Source: Escherichia coli (GTDB lineage: Bacteria; Pseudomonadota; Gammaproteobacteria; Enterobacterales; Enterobacteriaceae). From it: a stretch of DNA of 64,000 bases. The translations under genes and the position numbers were made by a program. Location: the NCBI RefSeq assembly GCF_030013205.1, contig NZ_CP122648.1, one strand, 5' to 3'. Each line of letters begins with the position of its first letter. Within the stretch, counting starts at the first letter, position 1. Below are positions 5,337 through 36,155 of the stretch, piece by piece. Below the pieces are notes generated by a model. The model had not been told where the DNA came from and ran no database searches. It saw nothing but the letters and a program-made list of their open reading frames with translations.

Positions 5337-6161
5337 ATGATTTTGACTCCCATACGACGATATGGGGCGATGATTCTTATGTTACTCACTCTGGTGTTTT
5401 CGAGTGAGGTGTTAGCGAAGACGCACACAACAACAGCGAGTCAAAAGTCCCACTTAACTAAAGCTAGTAATAAACAGGTAAGCAGTAAACAAGAGTATTC
5501 TCGCAATAGTGCAAAGAGTAGTTCACTTCCTGATTTGCGAAAATACCCTTCCGGAACACCAAGGAAAAAGGCGTTTCTCCGGACTGTGATGCCTTACATT
5601 ACCAGCCAAAATGCGGCCATTACTGCGGAACGTAACTGGCTGATTTCAAAACAGTATCAGGGCCAATGGTCACCTGCTGAGCGTGCGCGTCTGAAAGACA
5701 TCGCCAAACGCTACAAGGTGAAGTGGTCTGGTAATCCGCGAAAAATCCCGTGGAATACCTTGCTTGAACGCGTAGACATTATCCCCACCAGTATGGTAGC
5801 GACGATGGCTGCAGCAGAAAGCGGTTGGGGAACGTCGAAGCTGGCGCGCAACAACAACAATCTGTTCGGCATGAAATGCATGAAAGGACGTTGTACTAAT
5901 GCGCCGGGTAAAGTGAAGGGGTACTCACAGTTTAGTTCTGTCAAAGAATCGGTGAGCGCCTATGTTACTAACCTGAATACGCATCCGGCTTACTCTTCGT
6001 TCCGTAAATCGCGTGCACAGCTGCGTAAAGCAGATCAGGAAGTGACTGCCACAGCGATGATTCACAAGCTGAAGGGCTACTCGACCAAAGGGAAGAGTTA
6101 TAACAACTACCTGTTCGCAATGTACCAGGATAACCAACGGTTAATCGCGGCACATATGTAA
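5337..6161 (+). CDS. bax: Bax protein (putative glucosaminidase-like)
   Basis: 274 aa, recognised sequence and position between malS and xylR. Confidence 0.9.
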   Translation: MILTPIRRYGAMILMLLTLVFSSEVLAKTHTTTASQKSHLTKASNKQVSSKQEYSRNSAKSSSLPDLRKYPSGTPRKKAFLRTVMPYITSQNAAITAERNWLISKQYQGQWSPAERARLKDIAKRYKVKWSGNPRKIPWNTLLERVDIIPTSMVATMAAAESGWGTSKLARNNNNLFGMKCMKGRCTNAPGKVKGYSQFSSVKESVSAYVTNLNTHPAYSSFRKSRAQLRKADQEVTATAMIHKLKGYSTKGKSYNNYLFAMYQDNQRLIAAHM

Positions 6162-30230: not shown

Positions 30231-30553
30231 TCATCTGCCGCGAGCTACTGGGCTTTAGCCTTAGTGTGAATCAAACGCTTCAACGCAATGTATAAACAAT
30301 GACGCGTAAAATTTGGGCCAGTTAACTGGCCCTTTTTACTGCTTTTTGTAACGCTAAAGTCTCTTTTCAAACTTGCATTTTTGTAAATTTGTGCTTCGTG
30401 CACACTCTTTCCCCACACTTTTTCCCTTTGCTGTGGTCTACTTATTCGCGCGTGTAGATTTTACTTATCTGACTACCTCCGCACTTTTCCCCTGCCTGGC
30501 CTGAAAAGCCATTAAGCAGGGTGTTATCACCTGTTTGTCCAGGGTTTGTTTGC

Positions 30554-32245
30554 ATGAGATACATCAAATCGATTACACAGCAGAAGCTGAGCTTTTTGCT
30601 TGCAATCTATATTGGCCTTTTTATGAATGGCGCGGTTTTTTACCGCCGCTTCGGCAGCTATGCGCACGATTTTACCGTCTGGAAAGGCATTTCTGCTGTT
30701 GTTGAACTGGCCGCCACCGTACTGGTGACCTTCTTTTTACTACGTCTTCTTTCGCTGTTTGGCCGCCGTAGCTGGCGTATTCTGGCGTCGCTGGTGGTGC
30801 TCTTTTCCGCAGGTGCCAGCTATTACATGACCTTCCTTAATGTGGTCATTGGTTATGGCATCATCGCTTCCGTCATGACCACCGATATCGACCTGTCAAA
30901 AGAAGTTGTTGGTCTGAACTTTATTCTCTGGTTAATCGCCGTTAGCGCATTGCCTCTTATCCTTATCTGGAATAACCGCTGTCGCTACACCTTGCTCCGA
31001 CAACTGCGAACCCCAGGGCAGCGTATTCGCAGCCTGGCGGTCGTCGTACTGGCGGGTATTATGGTTTGGGCACCGATTCGTTTGCTGGATATCCAGCAGA
31101 AGAAAGTGGAGAGGGCGACCGGTGTTGATTTGCCCAGCTATGGCGGTGTCGTAGCGAACTCTTATCTGCCATCAAACTGGCTTTCTGCGTTGGGGCTGTA
31201 TGCCTGGGCGCGGGTCGATGAATCTTCCGATAATAATTCATTGCTTAACCCGGCGAAGAAATTCACTTATCAGGCACCGCAAAACGTTGATGACACTTAT
31301 GTCGTGTTTATCATCGGTGAAACCACGCGTTGGGACCATATGGGCATTTTTGGCTATGAGCGTAATACCACGCCGAAGCTGGCCCAGGAGAAAAATCTGG
31401 CAGCGTTCCGTGGTTACTCCTGTGATACCGCAACTAAACTCTCACTGCGTTGCATGTTTGTACGTCAGGGGGGCGCGGAAGATAATCCGCAGCGCACATT
31501 AAAAGAACAGAACATTTTCGCGGTGCTGAAGCAGTTAGGATTCAGTTCTGATCTCTACGCTATGCAAAGCGAAATGTGGTTCTACAGCAACACGATGGCA
31601 GACAACATTGCTTATCGTGAGCAGATTGGTGCGGAGCCACGTAACCGTGGCAAGCCGGTAGATGATATGTTGCTGGTAGACGAAATGCAGCAATCGCTGG
31701 GGCGCAACCCGGATGGCAAGCATCTGATCATTTTGCATACCAAAGGTTCGCACTTTAACTACACCCAGCGTTACCCGCGCAGCTTTGCGCAGTGGAAGCC
31801 GGGATGTATTGGTGTTGATAGCGGCTGTACCAAAGCGCAGATGATCAACTCCTATGACAACTCGGTGACCTATGTGGATCACTTTATCTCCAGCGTGATT
31901 GATCAGGTTCGCGATAAGAAAGCGATTGTGTTCTACGCAGCTGACCACGGTGAGTCAATTAATGAACGCGAGCACCTGCACGGCACACCGCGTGAACTGG
32001 CACCGCCGGAGCAGTTCCGTGTGCCGATGATGGTCTGGATGTCAGATAAATATCTAGAAAATCCGGCCAATGCGCAGGCATTTGCGCAGCTGAAAAAAGA
32101 AGCCGACATGAAAGTGCCACGCCGTCATGTAGAGCTGTACGACACCATCATGGGTTGTCTTGGCTATACTTCACCGGATGGTGGAATTAACGAAAACAAC
32201 AACTGGTGCCACATCCCGCAGGCAAGAGAGGCGGCGGCTAACTAA
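30554..32245 (+). CDS. eptB: Kdo2-lipid A phosphoethanolamine transferase
   Basis: ORF-track 30521..32245 trimmed to [10 protein letters not shown] (563 aa); N-terminal TM domain plus sulfatase-like domain. Confidence 0.9.
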
Positions 32246-32336: not shown

Positions 32337-32756
<420 letters not shown>

Positions 32757-33339
32757 CACCGCACTCATTGTGGGATACAGCGTATCCGTCTTATCCGATC
32801 TAAACGGCAACACACCACACATTTCCCTGCCAAATTTGCGCCCCATATCTCACTATCCATTAATGGATTTGTGACAGAAACCATTGTCTTTTTTTATATT
32901 TGCTTAAATCTTTTTTTGCGTTACTTATGACTGGCGCTGGCATTTTCCGCTGTGCGTTTTAGCGTTCATGGTATTAATCGCTCAGATATCCACCTTTTCC
33001 TCAGATTTTTTTCACTAAATGCATAAAACTTAATCACCAAATGTTGCTAAATATTAAGCTGATTGTTCTGGTCATGTTGGAGTAGCACAAATTTCTCTGC
33101 TGCAAATAGCGGTTTGAAGTTTTTTTAATCTTTGTTTGTGGATTCTCACCGTTGGTGTAAATCCCGGTTGGCTGTATTGACGTTTTCACATTCTGTTGAC
33201 AGATTGTAGGTCACGAGGGGCATTTTATGGAGGATCCGCACTGTTACACTGATGTTAATTAGTACGGCATCCCCACCTCATAACGTTGACCCGACCGGGC
33301 AAAAAACAAAAAAGGTCAGGCGGCGACAACCCACTGCAA

Positions 33340-33377
33340 AGGGTTAAAACAACAAACATCACAATTGGAGCAGAATA
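33340..33377 (+). promoter_or_regulatory. dppA 5' UTR CA-rich segment, known target region of GcvB sRNA
   Basis: aaaacaacaaacatcacaattggagcagaata immediately upstream of the dppA ATG. Confidence 0.5.
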
Positions 33378-34985
33378 ATGCGTATTTCCTTGAAAAAGTC
33401 AGGGATGCTGAAGCTTGGTCTCAGCCTGGTGGCTATGACCGTCGCAGCAAGTGTTCAGGCTAAAACTCTGGTTTATTGCTCAGAAGGATCTCCGGAAGGG
33501 TTTAACCCGCAGTTGTTTACCTCCGGTACTACCTATGACGCCTCTTCCGTGCCGCTTTATAACCGCCTGGTTGAATTTAAAATCGGCACCACCGAAGTGA
33601 TCCCGGGCCTCGCTGAAAAGTGGGAAGTCAGCGAAGACGGTAAAACCTATACCTTCCATCTGCGTAAAGGTGTGAAGTGGCACGACAATAAAGAATTCAA
33701 ACCGACGCGCGAACTGAACGCCGATGACGTGGTGTTCTCGTTCGATCGTCAGAAAAACGCGCAAAACCCGTACCATAAAGTTTCTGGCGGTAGCTACGAA
33801 TACTTTGAAGGCATGGGCTTGCCGGAGCTGATCAGCGAAGTGAAAAAGGTGGACGACAACACCGTTCAGTTTGTGCTGACTCGACCGGAAGCGCCGTTCC
33901 TCGCTGACCTGGCAATGGACTTCGCCTCTATTCTGTCAAAAGAATATGCTGACGCGATGATGAAAGCCGGTACACCGGAAAAACTGGACCTCAACCCAAT
34001 CGGCACCGGTCCGTTCCAGTTACAGCAGTACCAAAAAGATTCCCGTATCCGCTACAAAGCGTTTGATGGCTACTGGGGCACCAAACCGCAGATCGATACG
34101 CTGGTTTTCTCTATTACCCCTGATGCTTCCGTGCGTTACGCGAAATTGCAGAAGAATGAATGCCAGGTGATGCCGTACCCGAACCCGGCAGATATCGCTC
34201 GCATGAAGCAGGATAAATCCATCAATCTGATGGAAATGCCGGGGCTTAACGTCGGCTATCTTTCATATAACGTGCAGAAAAAACCACTTGATGACGTGAA
34301 AGTTCGCCAGGCTCTGACCTACGCGGTGAACAAAGACGCTATCATCAAAGCGGTTTATCAGGGCGCGGGCGTGGCAGCGAAAAACCTGATCCCGCCAACC
34401 ATGTGGGGCTATAACGACGACGTTCAGGACTACACCTACGATCCCGAAAAAGCGAAAGCCTTGCTGAAAGAAGCGGGCCTGGAAAAAGGCTTCTCCATCG
34501 ACCTGTGGGCAATGCCGGTACAACGTCCGTATAACCCGAATGCTCGACGCATGGCAGAGATGATTCAGGCAGACTGGGCGAAAGTGGGCGTGCAGGCCAA
34601 AATTGTCACCTACGAATGGGGTGAGTATCTCAAGCGTGCGAAAGATGGCGAGCATCAGACGGTAATGATGGGCTGGACTGGCGACAACGGGGATCCGGAT
34701 AACTTCTTCGCCACCCTGTTCAGCTGCGCCGCCTCTGAACAAGGCTCCAACTACTCAAAATGGTGCTACAAACCGTTTGAAGATCTGATTCAACCGGCGC
34801 GTGCTACCGACGACCATAACAAACGCGTTGAACTGTACAAGCAAGCGCAGGTGGTGATGCACGATCAGGCTCCGGCACTGATCATCGCTCACTCCACCGT
34901 GTTTGAACCGGTACGCAAAGAAGTTAAAGGCTATGTGGTTGATCCATTAGGCAAACATCACTTCGAAAACGTCTCTATCGAATAA
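33378..34985 (+). CDS. dppA: Dipeptide-binding periplasmic protein
   Basis: 535 aa with signal peptide; recognised DppA. Confidence 0.97.
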   Translation: MRISLKKSGMLKLGLSLVAMTVAASVQAKTLVYCSEGSPEGFNPQLFTSGTTYDASSVPLYNRLVEFKIGTTEVIPGLAEKWEVSEDGKTYTFHLRKGVKWHDNKEFKPTRELNADDVVFSFDRQKNAQNPYHKVSGGSYEYFEGMGLPELISEVKKVDDNTVQFVLTRPEAPFLADLAMDFASILSKEYADAMMKAGTPEKLDLNPIGTGPFQLQQYQKDSRIRYKAFDGYWGTKPQIDTLVFSITPDASVRYAKLQKNECQVMPYPNPADIARMKQDKSINLMEMPGLNVGYLSYNVQKKPLDDVKVRQALTYAVNKDAIIKAVYQGAGVAAKNLIPPTMWGYNDDVQDYTYDPEKAKALLKEAGLEKGFSIDLWAMPVQRPYNPNARRMAEMIQADWAKVGVQAKIVTYEWGEYLKRAKDGEHQTVMMGWTGDNGDPDNFFATLFSCAASEQGSNYSKWCYKPFEDLIQPARATDDHNKRVELYKQAQVVMHDQAPALIIAHSTVFEPVRKEVKGYVVDPLGKHHFENVSIE

Positions 34986-35135
34986 TTAAAAGCCATACCC
35001 GGTGGCGCTGCATCTCTGCGTGCAGCGCCATCCGGCAGCAATACTTCATTCCCTGTCCGGCACGGGCGGGAATTGATTTGTGAGCAATACAGACACGCAG
35101 TTCCAGGCTGCGGGTCACTACAGAGAATCCGGGTT

Positions 35136-36155
35136 ATGTTGCAGTTTATTCTCCGACGTTTGGGACTCGTCATCCCCACGTTTATCGGTATTACCCTTCT
35201 CACATTTGCCTTTGTCCACATGATCCCGGGCGATCCGGTGATGATCATGGCGGGCGAACGTGGGATCTCCCCAGAGCGTCACGCGCAGCTGCTGGCTGAA
35301 CTCGGCTTAGATAAACCGATGTGGCAGCAGTATCTCAATTACATTTGGAGCGTAATGCACGGCGATTTAGGCATTTCGATGAAAAGCCGCATCCCGGTTT
35401 GGGAAGAGTTCGTGCCGCGCTTTCAGGCCACGCTGGAGCTTGGTGTCTGCGCGATGATTTTTGCGACTGCGGTCGGTATTCCAGTCGGTGTGCTGGCTGC
35501 GGTTAAACGCGGTTCCATTTTCGATCACACGGCGGTTGGTCTGGCGCTGACCGGCTACTCGATGCCGATCTTCTGGTGGGGCATGATGCTGATCATGCTG
35601 GTTTCGGTGCACTGGAACCTGACGCCCGTCTCCGGTCGCGTGAGCGACATGGTGTTCCTCGATGATTCCAATCCGTTAACCGGTTTTATGCTAATCGACA
35701 CCGCCATCTGGGGTGAAGACGGTAACTTTATCGATGCCGTCGCCCATATGATCCTGCCCGCCATTGTGCTGGGTACTATCCCGCTGGCGGTCATTGTACG
35801 TATGACACGCTCCTCGATGCTGGAAGTGCTGGGTGAAGATTACATCCGCACCGCGCGCGCCAAAGGGTTGGCCCGCATGCGGGTGATTATCGTCCATGCT
35901 CTGCGTAACGCGATGCTGCCGGTAGTGACCGTTATCGGCCTGCAGGTGGGAACATTGCTGGCGGGGGCGATTCTGACCGAAACCATCTTCTCGTGGCCCG
36001 GTCTGGGGCGCTGGTTGATTGACGCACTGCAACGCCGCGACTATCCGGTAGTGCAGGGCGGCGTATTGCTGGTGGCGACGATGATTATCCTCGTCAACTT
36101 GCTGGTCGATCTGCTGTACGGCGTGGTGAACCCGCGTATTCGTCATAAGAAGTAA
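35136..36155 (+). CDS. dppB: Dipeptide ABC transporter permease
   Basis: ORF-track 35073..36155 trimmed to MLQFILRRLG (339 aa). Confidence 0.93.
   Translation: MLQFILRRLGLVIPTFIGITLLTFAFVHMIPGDPVMIMAGERGISPERHAQLLAELGLDKPMWQQYLNYIWSVMHGDLGISMKSRIPVWEEFVPRFQATLELGVCAMIFATAVGIPVGVLAAVKRGSIFDHTAVGLALTGYSMPIFWWGMMLIMLVSVHWNLTPVSGRVSDMVFLDDSNPLTGFMLIDTAIWGEDGNFIDAVAHMILPAIVLGTIPLAVIVRMTRSSMLEVLGEDYIRTARAKGLARMRVIIVHALRNAMLPVVTVIGLQVGTLLAGAILTETIFSWPGLGRWLIDALQRRDYPVVQGGVLLVATMIILVNLLVDLLYGVVNPRIRHKK

Follow-up and report, generated by a model that had tools for sequence, protein, structure and literature searches.

The C/A-rich element AACAACAAACATCACAA, found at 33348..33364 (+ strand) of the 64-kb stretch of Escherichia coli DNA analyzed here (the window), is very probably a canonical target of the G/U-rich R1 region of the sRNA GcvB, located in the dppA 5′ UTR and acting at the same time as an ACA translational enhancer. 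This 17-mer, which constitutes the core of the GcvB R1 target and has a single exact occurrence in the window, covers positions -30..-14 relative to the dppA ATG at 33378 and lies within the interval 33340..33377, which reads AGGGTTAAAACAACAAACATCACAATTGGAGCAGAATA. It ends 2 nt (TT/UU) upstream of the Shine-Dalgarno (SD) GGAG (33367..33370, + strand), which is followed by a 7-nt spacer to the ATG and whose first G forms a predicted pair with C62 of GcvB. Four ACA motifs occur within 33349..33363, the last one 3 nt before the SD, in a region predicted to be unpaired. A sequence-only reading of this DNA had already placed a C/A-rich element of the type bound by GcvB R1 immediately upstream of the dppA SD, which agrees with the position and pairing described here, and the enhancer role of the same element is absent from that reading.

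The ORF at 33378..34985 (+ strand; 535 aa) is identified as DppA, the periplasmic dipeptide-binding protein of the DppABCDF ABC transporter, by the NCBIfam equivalog NF043070 (DppA_dipep), with a full-length match of 1178 bits (cut-off, 1005). Of 5426 complete E. coli genomes, 5422 contain the region 33000..33500, which has 100% identity to several swine isolates; together with the equivalog match, this indicates that the window comes from E. coli and that the gene is, as had been proposed, dppA. The locus carries a dppA annotation in 5422 E. coli genomes, and the strain background is nearest to swine ETEC/O139 isolates. The order of the genes is eptB (30521..32245), tRNA-Pro(CGG) proK (32337..32413), dppA, dppB and dppC. 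In the case of dppB, the mechanical ORF (35073-36155, + strand) opens with a TTG at 35073, 21 codons upstream of the start of the NCBIfam DppB model; as this model begins at residue 22, the true dppB start is probably near 35136, leaving a dppA-dppB intergenic gap of ~150 nt. Directly 3′ of proK, two tandem RtT-type repeats were detected at 32448-32581 and 32614-32749 (+ strand; Rfam RF00391, 101 and 96 bits, both full-length). Neither repeat is annotated in the K-12 RefSeq, which has no annotated feature between proK and dppA, and the classical description of RtT places it downstream of tyrT.

The 5′ untranslated leader of dppA (33213..33377, + strand) would be about 165 nt long, in line with the length known from the literature. 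Its 5′ end was set near 33212-33213 from a conserved promoter block and from the Salmonella construct described as the '5′ 166 nt of DppA mRNA' in Tree et al. 2014 (PMC4104026). The putative promoter (33177..33205, + strand), deduced from conservation, would be of the extended -10 type, with TTGACG (33177-33182), 17 nt and (TGa)CAGATT (33200-33205), and forms a nearly invariant block in 12 genera. A sigma-70 consensus scan did not report this dppA promoter, because its -10 hexamer matches the consensus at only 3/6 positions, and Rfam gave no described RNA family within the leader. A longer promoter-proximal block (33118-33212, + strand), with stretches such as AGTTTTTTTAATCTTTG and CTGTATTGACGTTTTCACATTCTGTTGACAGATTGTAGG, the latter containing two TTGAC motifs, is almost invariant in 12 enterobacterial genera; this conservation reaches far past a minimal promoter, which suggests that regulators may bind densely there. 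Near-invariance across the 12 genera extends to the initial ~50 nt of the leader, and a small uORF (33228-33263, + strand; start ATGGAGGATCCGCACTG, peptide MEDPHCYTDVN) begins about 15 nt past the putative TSS. The first ~6 codons of this uORF (ME[ND]PHC) recur in many genera. As a conserved leader peptide it was rejected, given a length that ranges from 10 to 39 aa and its absence in many genera, and its start more likely reflects the nucleotide conservation of the 5′ leader rather than a conserved peptide. It seems unlikely that, besides the GcvB/ACA site, the dppA leader holds other regulation not yet described.

Pairing was predicted with the gcvB gene of K-12 MG1655 (NC_000913.3, 2942696..2942901; confirmed by Rfam RF00022, 199 bits), used as a proxy for the copy of the source strain, since gcvB lies outside the 64-kb window. 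Of 5426 complete E. coli genomes, 5425 carry the gene (with at least 99% identity in 5389 of them), so the source strain almost certainly has it. RNAduplex was limited to 30-nt windows, as an unrestricted run with full-length GcvB gave a meaningless 190-nt 'duplex'. The best hybrid between GcvB and the leader involves GcvB 57-83 and positions -31..-6 (33347..33372, + strand), at -29.5 kcal/mol, and this maximal predicted footprint runs through the UU and the SD. In the prediction, A33348-A33354 pair with U82-U76, G75 is bulged, and A33355-G33367 pair with U74-C62 through ten Watson-Crick pairs (AACAUCACAA with UUGUGAUGUU) followed by two G-U pairs and one G-C. Over GcvB 62-82, the element thus offers 17/18 Watson-Crick positions with one bulged GcvB base, plus the two G-U and the G-C. 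An optional 3′ extension, in which G33368-C33371 would pair with GcvB U60-G57, is less certain because the base of GcvB stem-loop 1 must open.

The raw hybridization energy of such a G/U-rich strand is non-specific, because it wobble-pairs promiscuously. For R1 (nt 61-92), values of -28 to -35 kcal/mol were obtained at many coding-region positions in a scan of both strands of the window, so that energy alone would not pick the dppA site. When the comparison was restricted to Watson-Crick pairs, through a local alignment of the reverse complement of GcvB 61-92 with both strands of the 64 kb (128 kb), the dppA element ranked first as R1 complement, with a score of 29, followed by a runner-up with 23 and over a background of 10.1 ± 2.3. 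The base composition of the element by itself is only mildly unusual: at least 16 A/C in 17 bases are found at 5 places per strand (10 in total) across the 64 kb. Exact 10-mers complementary to R1 were seen 7 times in the window, for 2.8 expected. A perfect 11-nt R1 complement, ACACAACAACA, maps to 5425-5435 (+ strand) within the bax ORF (5337-6161), 88 nt past its ATG, and is probably a chance match. As to the R1 sequence itself, the 11-mer TGTGATGTTGT, identical to GcvB R1 nt 67-77, occurs at 48053-48063 (+ strand) in the intergenic region between a pdeK/hmsP-like gene and dctA, whose ATG (48135) follows 72 nt downstream; the frequency of this kind of match is at the level of chance (2 such 11-mers, 0.67 expected).

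With accessibility taken into account, the C/A element is the sole GcvB site of the leader with a favourable energy: -13.6 kcal/mol for the core and -14.9 kcal/mol for the full duplex after correction, with an overlapping variant at -10.7, whereas the non-overlapping candidates (-104..-77, -59..-32 and -10..+18) are all unfavourable after opening energies, at +2.9 to +4.5 kcal/mol, and were discarded. The MFE and centroid predictions alike leave the element single-stranded, and its mean predicted probability of being unpaired is 0.88, compared with 0.51 for the whole leader. On the mRNA side, the predicted opening energy is 0.8-0.9 kcal/mol, and nt 71-90 of GcvB are predicted to be 0.6 unpaired.

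Conservation was followed in one genome per species, which gave 80 dppA loci whose DppA has an identity of at least 90%, and 62 distinct leaders of Enterobacteriaceae, from Escherichia, Salmonella, Citrobacter, Klebsiella, Raoultella, Enterobacter, Kluyvera, Buttiauxella, Cedecea, Franconibacter and other genera. All 62 leaders show a C/A-rich, G-free tract at the position of the element. Anchored on the SD, positions -20 to -3 have an A+C content of 0.8-0.97 and a G content of about 0, compared with an A+C content of about 0.5-0.6 farther upstream. With the E. coli R1 as query throughout, the best Watson-Crick complement falls in -45..-8 in 62/62 leaders, and the mean score is 26, for 13.5 ± 2.4 in shuffled leaders. 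The SD region GGAGCAGAA is conserved in the 80 related loci. Within the species, 5409 of 5422 complete E. coli genomes show at least 99% identity over a 56-nt region around the site, and the leader equals that of K-12 MG1655 exactly from -55 to the ATG, with the same site, SD and spacer, which upholds the earlier statement that the site is intact. The sole leader difference from K-12 MG1655 is a SNP at 33322, 26 nt upstream of the site, with G here and A in K-12; A is also present in the Escherichia loci L002-L004. What the present analysis shows is the sequence of the element, its position, its complementarity to R1, its predicted accessibility and its conservation.

The repression of dppA, its dependence on R1 and Hfq and the enhancer activity come from the literature, and would apply to this strain by analogy. 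The proposal that dppA is a classic GcvB target is in line with Table 1 of Miyakoshi et al. 2022 (PMC9299463), which assigns it to the R1 seed, marks it as 'Verified' for both E. coli and Salmonella, and records support from RIL-seq, CLASH and MAPS. Control of the E. coli K-12 dppA leader by GcvB goes back to Urbanowski 2000 and Pulvermacher 2008, according to PMC3658540 and PMC9299463. Direct interaction of GcvB with dppA at R1, through a GcvB deltaR1 mutant and footprinting, is described by Tree et al. 2014 (PMC4104026, citing Sharma 2007) as rigorously demonstrated. In the same paper, repression persisted after a 4-nt change in either dppA or GcvB, hence it offers no compensatory base-pair proof for dppA; the length of the dppA-GcvB pairing, of about 20 bp, would explain why such mutations leave repression. 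More recently, GcvB has been localized on dppA by in vivo proximity ligation (2025 preprint, bioRxiv 10.1101/2025.09.11.675593). As for where in the leader the published duplex falls, the mapping at the nucleotide level is taken from secondary citations and from the Salmonella primer sequences of Yang 2014, whose segment coincides with 33349..33363, and among these sources no duplex is published elsewhere in the leader.

The element resembles those of other C/A-rich GcvB R1 targets, such as oppA, gltI, argT, livJ, livK and yifK, the shared traits being an mRNA for a periplasmic-binding protein or transporter, an unstructured C/A-rich element located within its RBS or immediately before it, and the double condition of this element as enhancer and sRNA target. 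In the case of gltI, the C/A-rich element is said to lie far upstream of the RBS. The dppA duplex, on the other hand, is unusually long compared with those of the other R1 targets.

The closest known system is dppA of Salmonella Typhimurium, where the GcvB target comprises a segment of 15 nt, adjoining the SD, with four ACA motifs (Yang et al. 2014, PLoS Genet, PMC3879156). The primer ppN85 of that work, which reads ...GCAAAGGGCAAA[NNNNNNTNNNTCNNN]ATTGGAGCAGAAGAATGAGT, puts the ACA segment directly 5′ of ATTGGAGCAGAA. Gene, partner (the G/U-rich R1 of GcvB) and the four ACAs in 15 nt are the same in both organisms, and so is the position: Salmonella shows ACA-ACA-T-ACA-TC-ACA before ATTGGAGCAGAA, and the window shows ACA-ACA-A-ACA-TC-ACA (33349..33363) before ATTGGAGCAGAA. 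The segment contains one substitution, ACAACAAACATCACA in E. coli and ACAACATACATCACA in Salmonella, and the flanks show other differences, such as GGGTTAAA in E. coli for GGGCAAA in Salmonella, or AATAATG for AAGAATG. The A found here at 33355, in place of the U of Salmonella, would alter the duplex beside the bulged G75 at most slightly. In Salmonella, deletion of the 15-nt segment lowered dppA-lacZ by 96% independently of GcvB, and randomization of the four ACAs caused losses of expression of up to >100-fold (PMC3879156). From the near-identity of the two segments, we infer an enhancer role in E. coli as well.

Such strong effects could be taken to mean that the tract is a translational enhancer only, acting through its ACA motifs or as an unstructured A-rich ribosome standby site, with an incidental complementarity to GcvB, which would act elsewhere or indirectly. 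The near-abolition of dppA expression in Salmonella upon loss of the ACAs, a GcvB-independent effect, would fit this explanation, as would the enrichment of ACA among the 62 leaders (4.3 in the 25-nt slot and 0.5 per 25 nt elsewhere in the leader) and the fact that the exact sequence drifts across genera while the composition is maintained. However, no sequence in the window complements R1 better than the element, and the leader offers no second favourable GcvB site. Moreover, 52/62 leaders keep ATCAC at a constant distance of 8-9 nt from the SD, and this pentamer is the complement of GcvB G67-U71, which takes in A70, the sole A of the G/U tract. A conserved register of this kind favours a pairing site and is not expected of a generic ACA enhancer; the remaining ten leaders, which lack the registered ATCAC, still carry other R1-complementary strings. 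Together with the R1-dependent repression and footprinting reported in PMC4104026 and the in vivo chimeras on dppA (PMC9299463, bioRxiv 10.1101/2025.09.11.675593), these data make an exclusive enhancer very improbable: the tract does act as an enhancer, in addition to its GcvB role and not in place of it.

Slightly less probable still is that the tract serves mainly as a site for the distal face of Hfq, through an A-R-N repeat, or as a target of other G/U-seeded sRNAs or sponges, for example DapZ-type 3′UTR sRNAs, which are known from Salmonella, or AgvB in EHEC. The stretch AAC-AAC-AAA at 33348..33356 is made of three consecutive A-R-N triplets and would fit the distal-face repeat. According to PMC4104026, Hfq has an affinity for the dppA leader about 10-fold higher than for GcvB, with contacts probably made through its distal face, and AgvB, an EHEC prophage anti-sRNA, relieves repression through mimicry of such targets. 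The same paper, however, describes a ternary complex of Hfq, GcvB and the dppA leader, so these roles would accompany the control by GcvB, with no competition between them. Finally, a functionless, chance C/A-rich run, to which the ten similarly A/C-rich 17-nt stretches on both strands of the window and the near-chance frequency of exact 10-11-mers complementary to R1 might point, is ruled out by the conservation of position and composition in 62/62 leaders of many genera beside a divergent adjacent leader, and is further opposed by its near-invariance in 5409 of 5422 E. coli genomes and by the strong phenotype of its deletion in Salmonella (PMC3879156).

The dual element, as a GcvB-R1 target and ACA enhancer, would work as follows. 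When GcvB is absent, the unstructured C/A tract, with its four ACAs directly 5′ of the SD, would boost the initiation of dppA translation. In rich medium or with glycine, GcvA would drive the production of GcvB, whose single-stranded, G/U-rich R1 (nt ~62-83) would anneal with the assistance of Hfq to leader positions -30..-11, forming about 20 base pairs with G75 bulged. The resulting duplex would abut and partly cover the SD and mask the enhancer, and the binding of the 30S subunit would be blocked, repressing the synthesis of the dipeptide-binding protein. We infer that the source strain behaves like K-12 in this respect.

A last point is related to what can be drawn from this site. As to method, the case illustrates that wobble-inclusive duplex energy is non-specific for G/U-rich seeds, and that the true site is recognized by its Watson-Crick complementarity, its accessibility and its conservation. 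With regard to biology, both roles of the element, ACA enhancer and GcvB/Hfq repression site, are already known, and the finding entails no new biology. Its value is that of a correct annotation: the dual-function element, enhancer and sRNA target at once, is intact, and dppA in this strain would be under the textbook GcvB/Hfq control of peptide uptake.
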